Assembly (NCBI GenBank): GCA_964410475.1
Contig: CAYPGH010000001.1
Span: 1 to 52,902 of the forward strand
Source of the DNA: an uncultured Candidatus Saccharibacteria bacterium
GTDB taxonomy: Bacteria; Patescibacteriota; Minisyncoccia; Phycocordibacterales; UBA2100
Direction of reading: 5' to 3'
Length of the DNA stretch: 52,902 nt
This document shows positions 8,130-51,014 of this stretch, in pieces. The position numbers were made by a program, and so were the translations under genes. Position 1 is the first letter of the stretch. Every line of letters begins with the position of its first letter. The notes beneath the pieces are model-generated. The model was not told the DNA's origin, made no database searches, and saw nothing but the letters and a program-made list of their open reading frames with translations.

Positions 8130-9410
8130 CTAAACTTTCGAGTTTTTAACTATTCTCAAATCTGGTAGGACCATTACAAAATCGGATTTCAATCCTGCCT
8201 TCTTCAACCTCTTCATAATTACATCGGCATATTGCCATGACATAAGAACGACATAATCCGGTTGTTGTTTAAATAATATCTTTTCGTGTACTACGGGGAT
8301 ATGTTTTCCCGCCAAATACTTGCCCAATTTTAATGACGTCGGTAGCTCTGCCAGATAGGGAATATATTCGGTATCGATGCCGTAGTAATTCAAGAGCGTT
8401 GTGGCTCGTCCCGGGCACGATTTTCCGACGATGGATTTACCGGACCTTTTTACCTTTATCAGGAAATCCATAAATTCAAGACGCGCCTTCTGTGCGCGCC
8501 GTGCGAACTTCTTGTACGTTGCGAGCTTGTCTAACCCGGCCTCCTTCTCCAGTTTCAGCAATTGGGATACACGCGGACTCACGTCTCTTCCCTTACCCTT
8601 CGCGACATGCACGCGGATATTGCCGCCGAAATTACGCCCCCGCTCCACATCGGTCACAGTAAAGTCGTACTGATCAAACAGGGAGATGAGTGAGCGGAGA
8701 GAATATGTCCTTAGATGCGCGTGGTAGATGGTGTCGAATTGACCCACTTCTATCACGTCGAGAAGATAATGCATTTCAGCAATAAATACGCCGTCGTCCT
8801 CCAATAGATTGTGTATTCCCATGATGACCTCACCCATCTCCTGCACATGGGCGAACACGTTCGTCGTGATTATTATCGCCGCCCTGCCGTATTTTTTCTT
8901 GATTTGTTCCGAGGTCTTGATGTCAAAAAACGACTGAATAGTCCGAATGCCATCGGCATTTGCGATTTTAGCGATATTGGTCGGCTCAATCCCCAAGATC
9001 CTCACACCCTCCCTTTTAAAACCGCTAAGCAAAGTGCCGTCGTTTGAACCGATGTCTATAGCGAGATCTTTTGAGGTCAGATTATATTTTTCAATGAGAG
9101 AGATGCATATCTGCCTCTGATAATCTGCCAATGGTTTGGAGATGCCACTACGATATGGATAGTCGGGGTAATACAGTTCTTTACTGTCTACGCAATAATC
9201 TATTTGGACATCGGTGCACGTTTGACACCATACCATGCGCAATGGGTACGTTTTCTCGGGTTCATTAAGTGTCTCTTTGGTAAGCAGGGTGTCACAGAGC
9301 GGTTGGTGCCCGAGATCCAATATGACGTGTACTTTTGACGAATTACAGATTTGACAGCGCTGGACATGCCCTGTTTTCACTGAATGATGTTTAGGGTATG
9401 TCGATTTCAT
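8130..9410 (-). CDS. NDP-hexose C-methyltransferase (Zn-ribbon + Methyltransf_13/14 type, TylCIII-like)
   Basis: ORF 8130..9482. I start it at ATG 9410 (MKSTYPKHH...) because the upstream 24 codons are a translation of repeat copy A. Contains CQICNSSKVHVILDLGHQPLCDTLL, WCQTCTDVQ, AIDIGSNDGTLL. Confidence 0.8.
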   Translation of the reverse strand: MKSTYPKHHSVKTGHVQRCQICNSSKVHVILDLGHQPLCDTLLTKETLNEPEKTYPLRMVWCQTCTDVQIDYCVDSKELYYPDYPYRSGISKPLADYQRQICISLIEKYNLTSKDLAIDIGSNDGTLLSGFKREGVRILGIEPTNIAKIANADGIRTIQSFFDIKTSEQIKKKYGRAAIIITTNVFAHVQEMGEVIMGIHNLLEDDGVFIAEMHYLLDVIEVGQFDTIYHAHLRTYSLRSLISLFDQYDFTVTDVERGRNFGGNIRVHVAKGKGRDVSPRVSQLLKLEKEAGLDKLATYKKFARRAQKARLEFMDFLIKVKRSGKSIVGKSCPGRATTLLNYYGIDTEYIPYLAELPTSLKLGKYLAGKHIPVVHEKILFKQQPDYVVLMSWQYADVIMKRLKKAGLKSDFVMVLPDLRIVKNSKV

Positions 9411-9536
9411 CCCGTTAGAGGCAGGAAGCAACGCTTCCCGTACCTGATTTATTGCCAATAACCGACCCTGCTGATTTTCCACGTAGATGCTTCATATATT
9501 AAGTTTGCCTTCCGCGGCCTCTAACGGGATTCATGA
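9406..9536 (-). repeat. Long-stem element (LSE) copy A, 131 bp
   Basis: Arms ATCCCGTTAGAGGC (9409-9422) and GCCTCTAACGGGAT (9517-9530) form a 14-bp perfect stem. Second stem GGAAG 9424-9428 / CTTCC 9509-9513, with 1-nt and 3-nt bulges. Identical to copy B at 130/131 positions. Confidence 0.9.
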
Positions 9537-9617
9537 CCGAATTGTTGTCTCTTTAGCGGTTCGCAATTATAGCATCTCGCTTTCGTGGCTCAAGGACAGT
9601 GTTTCTGCCGGAGTTTT

Positions 9618-10577
9618 TCATTTTCCGCCCGCTTTACGTCGTCGATAAAAAGCGACCGTCTTTTTAAGACCACTCTCGAAACGAATCTTTGGCTTCCATC
9701 CCAAAGCCTTCTGCGCTTTCAAAGACTTAAGCGCGTAGCGGAAATCGTGGCCGAGCCTGTCCTCAACATGCTCTATCTGCCGCCGATCTTTTCCGAGGGC
9801 GCGTACGAGCATTTGTGCGACTTCTATATTAGGTAGTTCATCATGCCCACCGATGTTGTATATCTCACCGCTCTTTCCTTTGTGGAACGCGAGATCAATA
9901 CCTTTCACGCCGTCCTCGACGTAGAGCCAGCTACGCACATTTTTACCGCTACCATAGAGCGGTACGTTCTTTCCTGCGAGCAGGTTGGTAATTGAAAGTG
10001 GAATGAGTTTCTCCTCGTATTGTCGCGGACCGTAGTTGTTCGAGAGGCGCGTAATCACGATGTCGAGCCCAAAGGTGCGATTGTATGCGAGGACGAGCAT
10101 GTCGGCGCCTGCCTTTGATGCGCTGTATGGGCTACTCGGAGATAGCGTGTCTCCTTCTTTCGAGGGACGCGCATTCTTTGTAAGTGAGCCATACACCTCG
10201 TCGGTCGATATGTGATGAAAGCGTTGTACACAATGGCGTTTCGCGAGGACGAGCAGGTTATGCGTGCCGACGATGTTGGTCTCGATAAAAATGTCGGGAT
10301 TCTTGATACTCACATCGACATGGCTCTCTGCAGCGAAATGGATGATGTGTGTCGGATTATATTTCTTGAATATTCGCTCCATGGCCGCGAGGTTGCGGAT
10401 ATCTGCTTTCACGAACGAGTAATTCTTCGCCCTTGAGATCTCGATGTTTGCGAGGCGGCCTGCATAGGTAAGCACGTCGACGTTTATGAAGCGGTATCGA
10501 GGGTATTTTCGCACTGCATAGTTGAGGTAATTACTACCGATAAATCCCGCACCCCCGGTAACAAGAATAGTTTTCAT
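9618..10577 (-). CDS. rfbB: dTDP-glucose 4,6-dehydratase
   Basis: MKTILVTGGAGFIGSNY, HFAAESHVD, YSASKAGADMLV, and a length of 319 aa. Sits immediately downstream of a sugar-1-P nucleotidyltransferase. Confidence 0.9.
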   Translation of the reverse strand: MKTILVTGGAGFIGSNYLNYAVRKYPRYRFINVDVLTYAGRLANIEISRAKNYSFVKADIRNLAAMERIFKKYNPTHIIHFAAESHVDVSIKNPDIFIETNIVGTHNLLVLAKRHCVQRFHHISTDEVYGSLTKNARPSKEGDTLSPSSPYSASKAGADMLVLAYNRTFGLDIVITRLSNNYGPRQYEEKLIPLSITNLLAGKNVPLYGSGKNVRSWLYVEDGVKGIDLAFHKGKSGEIYNIGGHDELPNIEVAQMLVRALGKDRRQIEHVEDRLGHDFRYALKSLKAQKALGWKPKIRFESGLKKTVAFYRRRKAGGK

Positions 10578-10693
10578 GATGGCAATATAAGAGAGCCGAC
10601 TTGCCCCGTAGCCGACGCGAAGCGTCGCGGTACTGGGGTGAATCCCGCACCACCCGAGACGAGCATCGTTGTCTCTTTCATATTGCGCTTCAT
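10574..10693 (-). pseudogene. Orphan 5' stub of a different SDR epimerase/dehydratase gene
   Basis: Starting at the ATG that follows copy B, the frame reads MKRNMKETTMLVSGGAGF (a Rossmann-fold N-terminus), then loses similarity in a GC-rich imperfect hairpin. It stops at a TGA overlapping the rfbB ATG. Confidence 0.5.
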
Positions 10694-10819
10694 CCCGTTA
10701 GAGGCAGGAAGCAACGCTTCCCGTACCTGATTTATTGCCAATAACCGACCCTGCTGATTTTCCACGTAGATGCTTCATATATTAAGTTTGCCTTCCGAGG
10801 CCTCTAACGGGATTCATGA
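10689..10819 (-). repeat. Long-stem element (LSE) copy B, 131 bp
   Basis: Arms at 10692-10705 and 10800-10813. The only difference from copy A is 10798 a versus 9515 c, in the 3-nt bulge. The TAG stop of the rfbA-like gene (10804-10806) lies inside the arm. Confidence 0.9.
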
Positions 10820-11553
10820 GGTGCGCGCTTTTTCATAAAGAGGGAAGCCTTATGCAAAGCCTCGATGTTGCCAATATCGAACCACTCTTTTTTGAGAACA
10901 TGAGCGTTCAGAGACCCCTCCGCGAGATATAGGGAATTTACCGACGTAATCTCATATTCGCCCCGTTCACTTGGAGACACCCTTCTGATTTTATCAAAGA
11001 CGCTGTTGTCATATATATAGAAGCCGGTAACCGCCATGTTACTTTTTGGTTTGGACGGCTTCTCCTCAAGACTTATTATTTTACCTCTCGGGTTCACCTC
11101 CGCTATGCCAAAGCGCTTTGGGTCGGAGACTTTCTTTAAAAACACAGTGGCGCCCTTTTTGAATTTCTTGATAGCGGGTGAGATATCATCCATGAATATA
11201 TTGTCTCCCAAAAAAAGCACGCAGTTATCGTCTCCTATGTAATCCTCTGCAATATGGAGTCCATACGCGATGCCATTCGGCTCGTTTTGAATGCCGTAGA
11301 CTATCTGTATCTGTCTGGCGGTTGTCGATGTTGTTGGTACAAAGTGCTGTCCTGAACCAAGCAACTTTACGAATGCGTCAATGTGATGAGGAGAGGTTAC
11401 GACCATTATCTTCGTTATACCCGCATCAACCAGCTTCTCTATAGCATAGTAGATGACAGGCTTATTAAATACAGGTAATAGATGTTTGTTTGTAACAAGG
11501 GTTAGCGGGTGCAATCTGATGCCAGACCCTCCTGCGAGGATGACTGCTTTCAT
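10804..11553 (-). CDS. rfbA: Sugar-1-phosphate nucleotidyltransferase (glucose-1-phosphate thymidylyltransferase-like, short form)
   Basis: ORF 10804..11580. I start it at ATG 11553 (MKAVILAGGSGIRLHPLTLVTNKHLLPVFNKPVIYY). The substrate is inferred only from its position upstream of rfbB. Confidence 0.75.
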   Translation of the reverse strand: MKAVILAGGSGIRLHPLTLVTNKHLLPVFNKPVIYYAIEKLVDAGITKIMVVTSPHHIDAFVKLLGSGQHFVPTTSTTARQIQIVYGIQNEPNGIAYGLHIAEDYIGDDNCVLFLGDNIFMDDISPAIKKFKKGATVFLKKVSDPKRFGIAEVNPRGKIISLEEKPSKPKSNMAVTGFYIYDNSVFDKIRRVSPSERGEYEITSVNSLYLAEGSLNAHVLKKEWFDIGNIEALHKASLFMKKRAPHESR

Positions 11554-11674
11554 CCCGTTAGAGGCAGGACGCGGAAACAAAATATGCTCCGCACACTGGC
11601 ATGCTAATGCTAATAAATTTCGATTTCATAAGTAAATTAGCGATGAGTCGTCCGCGGCCTCTAACGGGATTCAT
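11549..11674 (-). repeat. Long-stem element (LSE) copy C
   Basis: Arms at 11552-11565 and 11657-11670, identical to those of A/B. The interior is unrelated. The second stem is GGACG/CGTCC (a compensated change relative to A/B). It ends directly at the rfbA-like ATG. Confidence 0.85.
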
Positions 11675-11831
11675 CCCGTTAGAGGCAGGAAGCTTGCCCC
11701 GTTAGAAATATCGTTTCTAACGGGGCTTGCACTTCCGACTCGGAAATTATTGCTTGTAAGCATACAACTGATGATAAACATATAGAGAATGTAGCACAAC
11801 CGGAACTACCGCGGCTTCTAACGGGATTCAC
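11670..11831 (-). repeat. Long-stem element (LSE) copy D, with a nested hairpin
   Basis: Arms at 11673-11686 (ATCCCGTTAGAGGC) and 11814-11827 (GCTTCTAACGGGAT; one position gives a G-T/G-U pair). Nested perfect hairpin GCCCCGTTAGAAA-TATCG-TTTCTAACGGGGC at 11696-11726. Together with copy C it forms a 30-bp perfect palindrome at 11657-11686. Confidence 0.85.
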
Positions 11832-11870
11832 TGCGGCCATACTATACTTTCCGTGATATAGTGTCCAATC

Positions 11871-12635
11871 ATGTTGAGTGAGGGCAAGAAATCCATATGT
11901 ATTATCCTTGCCTACAACTGCGGCAACGTCCTTGAGAACACGTATAGACGCATACCGAAAGATTCCGTGGACCACATCGTGCTAATTGACGATGGCTCTA
12001 CTGACAATACGCTTGCAGAGGCAAGCCGGCTCGGCATTGAGTACTACACTCACGAGAATCTGGGGTACGGAGGAAATATAAAATACTCCATAAGGAAAAG
12101 CATTGAACTGGGATTCGAATACATAGTCGATTTACACGGAGACGGGCAATACGATCCTACGGCCATACCTATAGCGCTTGCAAAAGCCAGGGAGGGTTAT
12201 GATTTTGTACTGGGGTCCCGCTTCACAGATCCTATGCAGCCGTTGCGGGATGGCATGTCGTGGGCGCGCTATTTTGCAAATATCGGCTTAAGTTCCATTG
12301 AACGTCTTGTGCTCAATCTTCCTCTCACAGAGTTCCACACGGGATTCAGGATCTATACAAAACATCTGGCAGAGACCGTAGCGCTCGAAAACACGTCCGA
12401 CGATTTTCTCTTTAGCTTTCAGATTATCGCGCAAGCCGTTTTTGCCAAGCTCAAGATAGGAGAAGTGCCGATACGTTGTAACTATAAGGAAGAACACTCA
12501 TCCATCTCTATTCCAAGATCCATTAAGTACGCATTTCAAACATTTGGAATTCTCGCACTCTATCTTTTGGCGAGGATGGGTTTCAGAACCAAGCTATTTG
12601 CAAAAAATGATGCCGGACTTAAACGGCAGTATTGA
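11871..12635 (+). CDS. GT2 family glycosyltransferase
   Basis: ICIILAYNCGNVLENT...IVLIDDGSTDNT, then DLHGDGQYDP (DxD-type region). 254 aa. Confidence 0.8.
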   Translation: MLSEGKKSICIILAYNCGNVLENTYRRIPKDSVDHIVLIDDGSTDNTLAEASRLGIEYYTHENLGYGGNIKYSIRKSIELGFEYIVDLHGDGQYDPTAIPIALAKAREGYDFVLGSRFTDPMQPLRDGMSWARYFANIGLSSIERLVLNLPLTEFHTGFRIYTKHLAETVALENTSDDFLFSFQIIAQAVFAKLKIGEVPIRCNYKEEHSSISIPRSIKYAFQTFGILALYLLARMGFRTKLFAKNDAGLKRQY

Positions 12636-30195: not shown

Positions 30196-31410
30196 ATGAC
30201 ACGCAGACGACCGCAGCCACTTTTCCCTCATTTGCAATATTGCACGCGCTGCTGTGTTCCGGAGACACAGGAAGGTATCAGGTTTGACGAAATGAGTATC
30301 TGCCAGGCATGCCAATCCTCGGAACAAAAGATTCATATCAATTGGGTGGAGCGGGAAGGTCAGCTTCGAAAGATATGTGATGAGGCTAAAGCGAAGGCGG
30401 GCGATAACTACGATTGCATTATTCCGATATCGGGCGGGAAAGACAGTGCATATCAATTGCACGTTCTAACAAAAATATATGGCATGAAGCCACTTGCGGT
30501 TACTCATAGTCATAATTGGTGGAGCGAGAGCGGGTGGTACAACCTCCAGAATACTCTGGAGACTTTTAACGTAGACCATATCGTATTCACTCCGAATAGG
30601 GGGCTCATAAATCGATTGGCAAAGAAATCCGTCGAAATGATCGGCGACGTGAGCTGGCACGATCATTCGGGAATCGGCTCCGTCCCGATCGGAATTGCGG
30701 TGCGCTTCAAGATTCCTCTTCTCGTCTGGGGGGAATCGCTCGCGGAGAATTCTGGAAGAGCGACCTATGAAGATCCCGTGCACAAGTGGGACAGGGAATA
30801 TCACCTTAAACAATCGGCGAAAAAGGATGCTGATCAGATGGTGGGCGAGACGCTTTCTTCGCGCGACCTCTATCCGTACATCGTTCCTTCAGAAGAGGAG
30901 ATGAAATCGGTAGGAGTGTGGGGAATACACTTGGGCGATTATATTTTTTGGGATGATGAGCGTCAGACGGAATTTTTGCGCGATACGTACGGGTGGAAAG
31001 AAACGGAAATGGAAAACACCTACAAGCGCTACAAGAGTGTCGAAGACATTATGTCGGGTATGCACGATTTCACCTGCTACCTCAAGCGCGGTTTTAGCCG
31101 TACGACCGAGCAAGCATCGATTGATGTGAGGAACGGCCTCTTGACGCGCGACGAAGCTTTTGCGCTCATCAGAGAGCATGAGTCCGAGCGGCCTGAAGCG
31201 CTTGATTACTATCTGAAAATTACTGATTCGACAGAAGAAGAATTCTATGAGGCCATGAAGAAATTGCGTTTGCCACAGATGAAGGATGTCGACATTCCGG
31301 TAAAGCAGAAAAATCACAAGAACGAAGAGAGACTTGTTCCGTTTCCCGAACAGCTCATTCAGAAATTCAATAAAACCGATTCTAAACGCAAGTATCTCGA
31401 TGAAATATGA
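30196..31410 (+). CDS. N-acetyl sugar amidotransferase (WbpG/PseA-like PP-loop enzyme)
   Basis: Contains YCTRCCVPETQEGIRFDEMSICQACQ (Zn-ribbon) followed by ISGGKDSAYQLHVL (PP-loop). Confidence 0.8.
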   Translation: MTRRRPQPLFPHLQYCTRCCVPETQEGIRFDEMSICQACQSSEQKIHINWVEREGQLRKICDEAKAKAGDNYDCIIPISGGKDSAYQLHVLTKIYGMKPLAVTHSHNWWSESGWYNLQNTLETFNVDHIVFTPNRGLINRLAKKSVEMIGDVSWHDHSGIGSVPIGIAVRFKIPLLVWGESLAENSGRATYEDPVHKWDREYHLKQSAKKDADQMVGETLSSRDLYPYIVPSEEEMKSVGVWGIHLGDYIFWDDERQTEFLRDTYGWKETEMENTYKRYKSVEDIMSGMHDFTCYLKRGFSRTTEQASIDVRNGLLTRDEAFALIREHESERPEALDYYLKITDSTEEEFYEAMKKLRLPQMKDVDIPVKQKNHKNEERLVPFPEQLIQKFNKTDSKRKYLDEI

Positions 31411-31534
31411 ACCTCGTTAGAGACCGCAGTCACACAAAATACACACTACAATGGTACATTCACTTTTCTATTTCACAAATTATATGAGTGACAATAACAA
31501 TACACGACCGCGACCTGTCTCTAACGGGGTGAAC
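31407..31534 (+). repeat. Long-stem element (LSE) copy F (plus-strand sense)
   Basis: ATGAACCTCGTTAGAGACCGCAG ... CGACCGCGACCTGTCTCTAACGGGGTGAAC. The stem 31411-31424 with 31517-30 is 14 bp including one G-U pair. The element fills the whole gap between the amidotransferase TGA and the GTG at 31529. Confidence 0.8.
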
Positions 31535-46740: not shown

Positions 46741-46890
46741 TTCTTAACGGGGTGGTACCCCGTTAGAAACAGGAAGCGAAGCTTGCCGTCTGAAAATTAC
46801 GGAAGGTGAACGATGTACCTCTTTATATTCGAGCAAGAATCCTAATCGCGCAATAACTTCCGCAGCTTCTAATGGGGTGGTACAATCCCG
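46741..46890 (-). repeat. Long-stem element (LSE) copy E (diverged), flanked by half-sites
   Basis: Arms CCCCGTTAGAAAC (46758-46770) and GCTTCTAATGGGG (46865-46877), with 2 non-Watson-Crick positions. The second stem GGAAG/CTTCC is conserved. There is an extra palindrome AACGGGGT-GGT-ACCCCGTT at 46746-46764. Confidence 0.7.
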
Positions 46891-49627: not shown

Positions 49628-50289
49628 TTCCCAAAGTCTAGCCGACCGGCTAGGATATGGGATAATAAGAAGACATGGGAAAGATCGAAGAAAAAGCAAA
49701 GCAAAAAACGAAGAAGAATGCACACGTACAAGATGCAATTCTTCTATACTTTCGCACCGTAGGAGCAATGGCGGCCGTTATACTTTCACCTAATCCGACC
49801 ATGTACAAACTCTTGCGTCAGATGGATCCTAATCCTTCAGGAAAGCGGAATGCCACGCATCGCATCAGAGAAGCTGCAAAACGCCTTGAGGCAGGTGGTC
49901 TCTTGAAGCGGGATCACAAAGGTCAATTTGTTCTCACCAGGAAAGGAGAACAGCGATCTGTCTTTTTAGAGAGCATGCAGAACATGCACATGATGAAACC
50001 GCACCATTGGGACGAGAAGTGGCGTATTGTTATTTTTGACGTGTGGGAGCGCAGGCGCGGGATACGTCAGCGACTGCGGGCGCTTCTTGAGAAGGCAGGG
50101 TTTGTGCGTCTGCAAGACAGCGTATGGGTGTATCCGTATCCATGCGAGGAATTTGTGGCATTTATACGCGCTGACCTACGGCTTGGCCCGGGCATGCTCT
50201 ATATCATTGCAGAAGAGATAGAACATGACCGGCATTTGAAGGAACATTTCGGCATCCCAATATCATGACGGTCGGCTAGACTTTGGGAA
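49628..50289. repeat. 21-bp perfect inverted repeats bracketing a single gene
   Basis: TTCCCAAAGTCTAGCCGACCG (49628-49648) is the exact reverse complement of CGGTCGGCTAGACTTTGGGAA (50269-50289). The right arm begins at the nucleotide after the TGA stop (50266-50268). Confidence 0.9.
49675..50268 (+). CDS. Winged-helix + Cas2-fold (PaaX-like C-terminal) domain protein
   Basis: The N-terminal part ends in a wHTH-like LLKRDHKGQFVLTRKGEQ. The C-terminal WRIVIFDVWERRRGIRQRLRALLEKAGFVRLQDSVWVYPYP follows the beta-alpha-beta pattern of Cas2/PaaX C-domains. Confidence 0.55.
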   Translation: MGKIEEKAKQKTKKNAHVQDAILLYFRTVGAMAAVILSPNPTMYKLLRQMDPNPSGKRNATHRIREAAKRLEAGGLLKRDHKGQFVLTRKGEQRSVFLESMQNMHMMKPHHWDEKWRIVIFDVWERRRGIRQRLRALLEKAGFVRLQDSVWVYPYPCEEFVAFIRADLRLGPGMLYIIAEEIEHDRHLKEHFGIPIS

Positions 50290-50729: not shown

Positions 50730-51014
50730 ACCCCGTTATAAGCAGAACGCCCCGCGGCTTGCCGCGGAGATGAATGCTAGTCGGGCTTAGCGAACTCGGG
50801 GTTTAATCCATGCGCAGAATTCCCCGACAGCTTGGCTGCGGGGATGAATGCGCATGAGGAAAGGAGGGTCGGGGAAAACGTAGTTTTCCCCGTGGAGGAG
50901 AGCAGAGAGCCTGTAATCAGGCGAACGTTGAGAACCGAGTGGTTCTCAAAATAAAATACCGCGACAGCTTGGCTACGCGGTAGTTTATTGTTCCGCGTGA
51001 GCTTCTAACGGGGT
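50730..51014 (-). repeat. Long-stem element (LSE) copy G, with a large (257-nt) interior
   Basis: ACCCCGTTATAAGC (50730-50743) pairs with GCTTCTAACGGGGT (51001-51014), 14 bp with one mismatch. A 1-nt bulge plus GAAC/GTTC second stem echo the other copies. The interior holds two of the GACAGCTTGGC hairpins. Confidence 0.6.

Follow-up and report, generated by a model that had tools for sequence, protein, structure and literature searches.

Correia/NEMIS elements of Neisseria, REPIN-RAYT systems and free-standing GIY-YIG homing endonuclease genes are among the described systems closest to the repeat family reported here. Correia/NEMIS are MITEs of 100-150 bp with terminal inverted repeats (TIRs) and a short target duplication, which occur in many gene-adjacent copies, nested and tandem ones included, and form long hairpins in mRNA. 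All of these features recur in the present family; however, its putative parent is a 285-bp GIY-YIG nuclease gene and not a DDE insertion sequence, its target is a start codon that the element rebuilds, its orientation relative to the gene is fixed and its termini are conserved across a whole superphylum. In REPIN-RAYT systems, hairpin-forming REP doublets are moved by a REP-flanked HUH transposase. Common to these systems and our family are a small nuclease gene accompanied by many short non-coding hairpins with the same inverted flanks, and compensated changes that keep the pairing of the short copies, but here the fold is GIY-YIG and not HUH/Y1, the repeats lie inside the coding sequence, 4 bp are duplicated and the copies sit on start codons.

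Free-standing homing endonuclease genes of the T4 seg and I-TevI type share the GIY-YIG catalytic domain and are likewise selfish genes wedged, co-oriented, between host genes. In contrast to these, the protein described below has 94 aa and no DNA-binding domain, its gene ends in inverted repeats flanked by target duplications, many unrelated sites are occupied per genome and there are non-coding miniature derivatives. The small GIY-YIG proteins of UPF0213/COG2827 are similar in size and also consist of a single domain; the structures of two of them, BH0048 and EF2693, were deposited as hypothetical proteins. Finally, the attC sites of integrons run from a 5' R'' core (RYYYAAC) to a 3' R' core (GTTRRRY), with an integron integrase nearby. 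They resemble our repeats in the short conserved cores that end an imperfect palindrome, in the variable interior and in the extra-helical bases, but differ in that the core order is reversed here, the hairpin itself is mobile, a target is duplicated and no integrase is among the Pfam families listed. To our knowledge, no GIY-YIG enzyme is tied by experiment to transposition that involves TIRs and target duplications. A literature search found no published description of such an element, and searching with the arm sequence gave unrelated primer matches only.

Elements C and D and the other copies in the window

The window, a stretch of 52,902 nt from an uncultured Candidatus Saccharibacteria bacterium, contains seven family members (A-G), which are given here with the direct repeats around C and D.

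9410-9529, minus strand: element A, abutting the start codon of a C-methyltransferase gene (true start 9410, not 9482)
10693-10812, minus strand: element B, one base different from A
11549-11552: TTCA, which reads TGAA on the gene strand; target duplication bordering C towards rfbA
11553-11669, minus strand: element C, miniature non-coding copy with terminal bases T11553 and A11669
11670-11673: TTCA, common to C and D, at the centre of the 30-bp palindrome 11657-11686
11674-11826, minus strand: element D, miniature copy with borders T11674 and A11826, whose second stem holds a nested mini-hairpin in its apical loop
11697-11725: nested mini-element of 29 nt in D, with arms CCCCGTTAGAAA and TTTCTAACGGGG of a sister subfamily and a short loop between them
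11827-11830: TTCA, distal target duplication of D
31412-31529, plus strand: element E, divergent copy at an ATGA stop/start overlap
46758-46877, plus strand: element F, divergent copy flanked by TGGTA repeats
50731-51013: element G, 283 nt, with family arms and TTTA flanks

The first-pass annotation had described C and D as tandem copies with the same arms, and these arms are real: those of C (11552-11565 and 11657-11670; 14 nt) are 100% complementary and those of D (11673-11686 and 11814-11827) 93%. The start codon of the rfbA-like gene lies at 11553-11551 on the minus strand, its A being the last base of C, and the distal TTCA followed by C11831 reads GTGAA on the gene strand, which is presumed to be the original start codon. 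We also recovered the perfect 30-bp palindrome that had been noted at the junction of the two elements, GCCTCTAACGGGAT-TC-ATCCCGTTAGAGGC, and the nested hairpin of D, a perfect 13-nt stem (11696-11708 and 11714-11726) with a 5-nt loop. The mini-element within this hairpin is flanked by CTTG direct repeats (11693-11696 and 11726-11729), an arrangement also found in another genome locus (L090:6132-6158). As to the interiors, which had been called unrelated, A/B, C and D indeed align at their ends only, with the exception that D and A/B share CTTCCTGCCTCTAACGGG beyond the arm at the gene-proximal end; the conserved part is, as had been proposed, the ends and not the interiors. The single-strand folds score z = -5.6 for C and z = -6.0 for D. 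Upstream ORFs are open in both elements as far as TAA-CGGG-ATG, with 38 codons in C and 50 codons in D (from GTG 11831 to the TAA in the arm), and a predicted promoter-like site ends at 11839, upstream of D.

Among the other copies, B contains within its arm the stop codon of the rfbA-like gene (TAG, 10806-10804). At E the upstream gene retains its TGA (31408-31410) and the start of the amidase gene has become GTG through the element's last base, G31529. F runs in reverse orientation, as only a few copies do, with the remnant of a solo arm directly upstream of it (about 46742-46754). The interior of G is non-coding and rich in smaller hairpins; tblastn found neither a GIY-YIG remnant in G nor a full-length GIY-YIG copy in the window. 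Fifteen occurrences of the arm word were counted in the window at no more than three mismatches, compared to 3.45 expected (0 of 100 shuffles reach 15), and CCGTTAGA occurs 14 times compared to 1.4 expected. The window has no Rfam 15 match at gathering score, positions 9300-11900 give one chance-level match at E up to 5, and a tRNA search found none.

Insertion signature and distribution of the family

The family was found at over 120 loci, almost all of them in genomes of CPR/Patescibacteria. Its short copies measure 105-160 nt, hold no conserved ORF and have the termini Y-CCCGTTAGA…TCTAACGGG-R, flanked by a 4-bp duplication that is usually TGAA. The 4 nt outside the terminal Y and R are identical in 89 of 135 copies, compared to 2 of 135 in the control, and TGAA leads the duplicated 4-mers (53), followed by TGGA, TGAG, TTGA/TCAA, CATG and CAAG. 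Copies adjoin a start codon, rebuild it and run in the same direction as the gene: an ORF of at least 60 aa lies directly 3' of 97 of the 108 orientable copies, the orientation relative to the downstream gene is 93 versus 5, and elements with C..G as their terminal pair are followed by a GTG start codon. The genes behind the copies have many functions, essential ones included, and the start codons occupied in other genomes are those of rplQ, rplR, rplI, frr, ssb, tig, gyrA, alaS, topA and ligA. With the same element on these start codons, a function specific to the polysaccharide control region, where C and D lie, is not supported.

Near-identical copies are found at different genes (A and B, and pairs at L042, L115 and L047), and C and D are separate units by the comparison that the first-pass annotation had asked for, since C alone is absent from seven of nine contigs that encode an identical RfbA-like protein, whereas D is present in nine of nine related contigs. 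The contigs without it (L122-L128) lack exactly a 121-nt unit, that is C plus one TGAA, and have an intact empty site, ...CGGGATGAAAGCAG. Terminal inverted repeats, a fixed 4-bp target duplication, near-identical small non-coding multicopy sequences, insertion polymorphism and a coding relative with the same ends (see below) are thus found together, contrary to the first-pass view that the elements are recombination sites or protein-bound hairpins rather than a simple MITE. Nor does the 30-bp palindrome appear to be a site of its own: it recurs at any abutting pair of copies (L040, L007, L062, L098, L078) and is gone in strains without C, which makes it a side product of a second insertion, one into the duplicated target. 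A tyrosine-recombinase core site composed of an arm, a 6-bp spacer and an arm was rejected for the same loss of the palindrome and because the flanking repeats differ between related copies of one genome, which fits a duplicated target.

A further polymorphism concerns element A, in which the nested hairpin of D is present or absent in other strains. One form has TTG where the other has CAAG...CAAG, so this is not a simple insertion and may have arisen by gene conversion between A and D. Searching with the 38-aa upstream ORF put no other insertion site of C on record, and phage carriage gave no confirmed matches in viral contigs.

Paired stems and the full-length GIY-YIG gene

Covariance analysis of the copies showed that pairing is kept through compensated changes, as had been suggested from the second stem of C, where GGACG/CGTCC indeed replaces the GGAAG/CTTCC of A and B. 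Across 105 copies, pairing in the outer helix reaches 99%. In short copies, columns 12/45 are GC in 51 and AU in 50 and columns 13/44 are GC in 50 and AU in 45, and both-sided changes occur at all six pairs of the second stem. It is plausible that the ends are recognised by a protein; the paired ends could be two identical protein-binding sites and not a hairpin, alternatives between which complementarity alone does not discriminate. A ribozyme or a tRNA-like anticodon loop at CGGG-AUUCAU-CCCG found no support.

The same arms also bound a full-length element of about 285 bp that is widespread in the ultra-small CPR/Patescibacteria; nearly all of it is one ORF for a 94-aa GIY-YIG nuclease (MNPVRD…FLSLTG*); the copy at L101:2980-3264, for instance, encodes a PF01541 GIY-YIG protein (E 1.2e-16). 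There are 2296 homologues, and among the best 120 of these 77 start with MNPVRD and 90 end with FLSLTG, the arms being the first and last codons of the gene (ATG AAT CCC GTT AGA GRC ... CTG YCT CTA ACG GGA TGA). Five residues (Y13, Y24, R34, H38 and E58) never vary in an alignment of 58 of these proteins and N84 hardly does, positions that, by this alignment, fit the known catalytic residues of GIY-YIG nucleases; the PF01541 match together with the conserved Tyr, Tyr, Arg, His, Glu and Asn places the protein in the GIY-YIG superfamily. It has no recognisable DNA-binding domain, scores far below the cut-off of the NCBIfam group I intron endonuclease model (18 bits versus 56), and has as its closest solved relatives by sequence BH0048 (PDB 1zg2; E 7e-10) and EF2693 (PDB 1ywl; E 1e-4). 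Full-length copies have neighbours of the same orientation on either side, each joined by an ATGA overlap, and are flanked by TGAA; many older copies are frameshifted and without clean duplications. A homing endonuclease gene, which cuts the empty allele of its insertion site and spreads through repair between homologous loci alone, is not supported, as related copies are found at many non-homologous sites with site-specific 4-bp duplications.

The full-length gene also has the second stem, an internal inverted repeat in which the codons of L-R-K-R-L pair with those of L-K-R-F, so that the last ~29 nt pair with two separate 5' segments. This repeat is 8-13 nt long, constant in position and varying in sequence. 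RNAalifold predicted both helices, with eight compensated pairs, from eight full-length genes, and at the protein level residue 6 from the N-terminus and residue -4 from the C-terminus co-vary as DNA pairing demands (D/S 86, A/A 11, G/P 2). Several observations connect the two size classes: at L217 the arms are identical to those of A-C, the 3' 24 nt (GCTTCCTGCCTCTAACGGGATGAA) are common to A and the spacing from arm to TACGG is 73 nt, compared to 74 nt in A, and the genome GW2011_GWD2_42_14 holds both short copies (L040) and a full-length copy (P0021).

Probable origin and proposed mobilisation of the short copies

Overall, we consider it probable, at about 80%, that A-G are miniature, non-coding, MITE-like derivatives of a very small mobile GIY-YIG gene with terminal inverted repeats. 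The short copies look like the full-length gene minus its apical ~150 nt: they have both stems and would have lost the apical part, which codes for half of the enzyme. It is unlikely that the arms are instead the cis sites of another transposase or recombinase, with the GIY-YIG ORF as cargo or as a homing-type passenger and the short form as the primary one. The window, with its seven short copies and no nuclease gene, would suit such an arrangement, as would the decay of many full-length copies and the 4-bp duplication, which DDE transposases typically make. Against it, in thousands of proteins the arms supply the opening and closing codons of the ORF and nothing else is encoded in between, conserved codons of that same ORF also make up the second stem, no transposase or recombinase domain is among the top 25 Pfam families listed for the window genes and for the genes beside 97 copies, and in 120 loci no classical transposase lies between the arms as in an autonomous copy.

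Stable folds, compensated pairing, the fixed orientation relative to the gene and the position of copies in the rfbA 5' leader, downstream of the promoter-like site, might also be expected of hairpins, in RNA or DNA, that regulate the polysaccharide locus as operators, attenuators or processing sites to which a host protein binds. We regard this as very improbable, since C is dispensable in seven of nine strains with the same operon, the family precedes unrelated housekeeping genes across a superphylum, the copies carry target duplications and derive from a coding gene, and no Rfam family matches. Integron-like attC sites bounding mobile gene cassettes are made very improbable by the core order, GTTAGA being 5' and TCTAAC 3', and by what actually moves, which is the hairpin and not a gene cassette; the 4-bp duplication and the lack of an integrase among the top 25 Pfam families listed for window genes point the same way, even though TCTAAC/GTTAGA resemble the R''/R' cores, the ends are conserved around variable interiors, the bulge is asymmetric and the genes between copies are all co-oriented. 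Invertible promoter switches of glycan genes, as in Bacteroides, where inverted repeats flank invertible segments of surface-glycan loci, are hardly credible either: inverted repeats around ~100 nt in a surface-glycan locus recall them, but the fixed orientation (93 versus 5 across genomes, and one and the same in nine strain contigs) speaks against inversion, no recombinase is nearby and non-glycan genes follow most copies.

The sequences show that the element inserts into a 4-bp target and duplicates it, mostly TGAA within A|TGAA, either at a start codon or at an ATGA stop/start overlap; the last base of the element (A or G) restores the downstream ATG or GTG, and the upstream gene still stops at the upstream copy of TGA. 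Each insertion regenerates an adjacent target and so gives rise to tandem pairs such as C-D with their junction palindrome. The mobilising enzyme, we infer, is the nuclease: a GIY-YIG protein made from a full-length copy elsewhere in the genome would recognise the paired ends and move the short copies in trans. That the ~285-bp GIY-YIG element is an autonomous transposon and the ~115-nt hairpins its MITEs is a more tentative proposal, to which we give somewhat less than an even chance.

Were the element autonomous, it would be smaller by far than any other self-mobilising DNA element known, and a GIY-YIG nuclease would for the first time drive a class of prokaryotic transposons; the element's structured two-helix ends and 'scarless' preference for start codons and ATGA junctions would let it colonise even the essential operons of minimal CPR genomes. 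Were the nuclease the mobilising enzyme, it would represent a new catalytic class for bacterial mobile DNA, and a minimal transposon would consist of one 94-aa protein and ~30 bp of paired ends. Reuse of the host start codon and of the TGA of the ATGA overlap shows how a selfish element can be tolerated before essential genes in very compact genomes. The family also bears on annotation, as start codons are called inside the element (besides that of A, the ORF list gives 11580 where the true start is 11553) and spurious N-terminal extensions enter protein databases. The conserved arms make CPR contigs easy to probe for and allow insertion polymorphism to be followed at the strain level.

How CPR bacteria translate through long 5' hairpins and initiate without a leader likewise becomes testable. 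We propose that the downstream gene might still be expressed because ribosomes traverse the element from the duplicated start codon, stop at the TAA or TGA of the 3' arm, which either lies 4 nt ahead of the real start codon or overlaps it, and re-initiate. The upstream frame stops early in 56 of 86 short copies, so read-through coupling is not a general route of downstream expression; these early stops, together with copy lengths that show no 3-nt periodicity, led us to reject a conserved leader peptide as a general feature. A weaker enrichment of open frames nonetheless persists: among copies with a length of 1 modulo 3, 21 of 41 are open in the frame of the upstream ATG, compared to 4-5 of 41 in the other two frames.

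A terminal-inverted-repeat family in the window

Searches with the arm word, which matches the window 15 times where 3.45 matches are expected, recovered seven copies (A-G) of one family with terminal inverted repeats; for the 8-mer CCGTTAGA the count is 14, where chance predicts 1.4. The arms of C and D, the palindrome at their junction and the hairpin nested in D were all found where the first-pass annotation had placed them.

Family copies and their parts (positions in the window)
9410-9529: element A, family copy
10693-10812: element B, family copy
11552-11565 and 11657-11670: arms of C, 14 nt, perfect
11657-11686: junction palindrome formed by C and D arms, perfect
11673-11686 and 11814-11827: arms of D, one mismatch
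11696-11726: 13-bp hairpin nested inside D, perfect
31412-31529: element E, divergent copy
46758-46877: element F, divergent copy
50731-51013: element G, divergent copy, 283 nt

A single base separates A from B and, apart from this pair, the window copies align at their ends only. Both C and D fold far more stably than shuffled sequence (z-scores of -5.6 and -6.0, respectively), and no Rfam family or tRNA matched the window. The copies lie in a large glycan-biosynthesis gene cluster, and the Pfam families listed for the surrounding window genes include no transposase or recombinase. Directly upstream of F a solo arm remnant (TTCTTAACGGGG, with one extra T; 46742-46757) forms a second, imperfect junction palindrome with the left arm of F. 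The interior of G holds several smaller hairpins (e.g. CATGCGCAGAATTCCCCG-12 nt-CGGGGATGAATGCGCATG and ACCGCGACAGCTTGGCTACGCGGT), some of them ending CCCCG/CGGGG followed by ATGAAT and resembling eroded nested copies. Just upstream of G, 49675-50268 encodes a protein with a PaaX central/Cas2-like domain (PF20803, E 7.6e-18), near which no CRISPR array was noticed.

A scan of a single genome from each species for CCCGTTAGARRC-N(80-110)-GYYTCTAACGGG returned at least 120 loci. Among the matches listed, nearly all are from CPR/Patescibacteria metagenome-assembled genomes (Saccharibacteria, many Parcubacteria lineages, Microgenomates, Berkelbacteria and Kazan), copy length clusters at 114-121 nt and 3-nt periodicity is absent. 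The common layout on the strand of the adjacent gene is ATGAA-T / CCCGTTAGARRC CGC GGTCGC ... GCGACC T GYYTCTAACGGG / A-TGAA-(gene). A few copies lie in bins labelled Elusimicrobia, Gammaproteobacteria/Proteobacteria, Omnitrophota, Bdellovibrionales, Pirellulales or Planctomycetota (loci L025, L037, L039, L057, L075, L078, L085, L098 and L118), which points either to horizontal spread outside CPR or to CPR contigs placed in the wrong bin.

Insertion, target and strain polymorphism

Among the matches listed, 89 of 135 copies have identical 4-nt stretches just outside the terminal Y...R, whereas the next 4 nt outward, taken as a control, agree in only 2 of 135. The flanking repeats of the copies listed are TGAA (53), TGGA (12), TGAG (9) and TTGA/TCAA (6), with CATG, CAAG and others also seen. 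Because related copies within one genome carry differing 4-bp repeats (e.g. loci L077 and L013), the repeat is a duplicated target that lies outside the element. The first base of the downstream start codon is the last base of the element, and a terminal pair C...G is followed by the start codon GTG, not ATG. Among the matches listed, an ORF of at least 60 aa directly follows 97 of 108 orientable copies, and the asymmetric interior has one orientation relative to the gene in 93 copies and the opposite in 5. The first-pass annotation had placed C and D in the divergent control region between the rfbA-like operon and the GT2 gene. A role tied to this glycan region is not borne out, as family copies also precede ribosomal and housekeeping genes (rplQ, rplR, rplI, frr, ssb, tig, gyrA, alaS, topA and ligA among them); it follows that insertion is not confined to glycan loci and that an inserted copy cannot eliminate expression.

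Nine further groundwater-metagenome contigs encode an identical RfbA-like protein. Two of them match the window identically across the C/D region, and the other seven are without exactly 121 nt, corresponding to C plus one TGAA, so that D adjoins the start codon (...CTAACGGG ATGAA AGCAG). This is direct evidence of independent movement by C. Since C alone is absent from the seven contigs, the 30-bp palindrome is a by-product of tandem insertion; it is not supported as a site in its own right. Tandem pairs with one common 4-bp repeat also occur at loci L040, L007, L062, L098 and L078, and are expected if each insertion recreates its own target.

The nested hairpin, which occupies the apical loop of D, belongs to a sister subfamily and is a minimal form reduced to the arms. 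It also occurs in element A of 4 of 7 comparable contigs (CAAG-CCCCGTTAGAAAC GAT GTTTCTAACGGGG-CAAG), at a position where A in the window reads GCG-TTG-C, and in the same context in another genome (L090:6132-6158). Comparison of the related strain contigs L121-L129 with the window shows single-base differences in its 5-nt loop (11709-11713; GATA vs GATG, read on the gene strand) and likewise inside B (CATCTACG vs CATTTACG). Together with the presence or absence of C and the filled or empty state of A, such differences imply at least three haplotypes.

A coding relative with the same ends and helices

At locus L101, one 275-nt 'element' is an intact ORF (MNPVRDDEYYYVYVLRS...GKRFLKNRLKRFLSLTG, then stop) whose product is the GIY-YIG catalytic domain (PF01541, E 1.2e-16). 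Searching 5.8 billion proteins yielded 2296 homologues; among the best 120 of these, almost all are 93-95 aa long, 77 start MNPVRD, 90 end FLSLTG, and where a source names them it calls them Patescibacteria, Parcubacteria or Minisyncoccia proteins. An alignment of 58 proteins shows no or almost no variation at the positions expected for the catalytic residues, and the nearest relatives with a solved structure are UPF0213 proteins, whose function is unknown. Both arms coincide with the coding ends of this ORF (ATG AAT CCC GTT AGA GAC ... CTG TCT CTA ACG GGA TGA). Full-length copies sit between co-oriented genes with a 4-nt ATGA overlap on each side and TGAA flanks, as at locus L133 (...aaagt GTGAA T CCCG...CGGG A TGAA aacgg). 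At locus L217 (MNPVRG...FLPLTG) the arms are identical to those of A-C, and 24 nt of the 3' end (GCTTCCTGCCTCTAACGGGATGAA) are common to L217, A, B and D. N-terminal residue 6 and C-terminal residue -4 pair as D/S (86), A/A (11) and G/P (2), co-varying exactly as DNA complementarity demands; selection on the inverted repeat therefore acts on the nucleotides, even where the protein sequence pays for it.

In the short copies listed, the outer helix is 99% paired, with G-C and A-U nearly equally frequent at two positions (51 to 50 and 50 to 45), and covariance upheld the claim that pairing is kept by compensated change, 6 of 6 second-stem pairs having changed on both sides. The second stem of the short copies is present in the full-length gene also: for eight full-length genes RNAalifold predicted the outer helix together with a 14-bp inner helix that adjoins it without a gap on the 3' side. 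In the inner helix, nt 98-111 (codons L-R-K-R-L) are paired to nt 258-271 (codons L-K-R-F), and 8 pairs are compensated. Many short copies, including A, B and D, carry TTACGG-AAGCG, a 3-4-nt loop and CTTCC-TG-arm, and arm and TACGG are 73 nt apart in L217 and 74 nt apart in A. Structurally, this form corresponds to the full-length gene after loss of the apical ~150 nt. In an alternative short form, exemplified by C, the 5' partner adjoins the 5' arm via a 3-nt bulge; in the copies listed, the second-stem 5' partner is long-range in 62, local only in 31 and neither in 18. The bulge is usually CGC and, with the last arm base and the start of stem 2, spells CCGCGG at the 5' arm junction (e.g. 11651-11656 and 9511-9516) in 51 of 111 family copies among the matches listed. 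CCGCGG is also the sequence recognised by Eco29kI, a GIY-YIG restriction enzyme, a match that may be coincidence.

Overall, the sequence comparisons place C and D among MITE-like elements, as non-autonomous relatives of a TIR-bounded GIY-YIG-encoding element. The sequences directly show how the short form derives structurally, that the target is duplicated, that copies sit on start codons and that C moves independently. The earlier view that they are not simple MITEs gives way to target duplication, insertion polymorphism and a coding relative with the same ends. The 94-aa nuclease would be the mobilising enzyme, and the paired ends would act as a hairpin or cruciform. Literature searches found no description of such an element.

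Downstream expression and gene starts

Upstream of D lies a promoter-like site, a consensus match whose -10 box ends at 11839, placing the transcript start near the GTG of the outer duplication of D (11831). At many family loci a -10 box of this kind precedes the upstream ATG by 6-8 nt, which suggests leaderless mRNAs. From GTG 11831, D is open for 50 codons and then reads TAA-CGGG-ATG; C is open for 38 codons before TAA-CGGG-ATG(rfbA). Among the copies listed, those of length 1 modulo 3 have the upstream-ATG frame open in 21 of 41 cases, compared with 4-5 of 41 for either alternative frame, and the upstream-ATG frame is open in 0 of 19 copies where fusion to the gene would result. In one frame the 3' arm supplies a TAA; in another, its TGA overlaps the ATG. 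Ribosomes would terminate within the 3' arm and reinitiate at the downstream start codon, and the open-frame pattern fits such a mechanism built into the arm. It cannot be the whole story, because two thirds of the copies listed have early stops. Read-through coupling would keep the downstream gene expressed.

In the divergent region (11839-11870 and 11832-11870), -10-like boxes (TATAGT / TAGTAT) lie only 8-9 nt from both starts, GT2 at 11871 and the rfbA-like operon, hinting at leaderless transcripts in this organism. Mechanical calls of the minus-strand ORFs 8130-9482 and 10804-11580 extend into elements, the true starts being likely 9410 and 11553; public gene calls show the same artefact, with the methyltransferase given as 450 aa or 396 aa. 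A 39-codon ORF after B (10574-10692, minus strand; MKRNMKETTMLVSGGAGF...) lies between B and the dehydratase gene 9618-10577, with a good ribosome-binding-site-like AAAGAGACAACG before ATG CTC GTC TCG GGT GGT GCG GGA TTC. Since ATG CTC GTC TCG... encodes the N-terminal Rossmann segment of a sugar dehydratase, this ORF resembles the remnant of a former gene start. The word AAAGAGACAAC occurs again just upstream of A (about 9545-9555).
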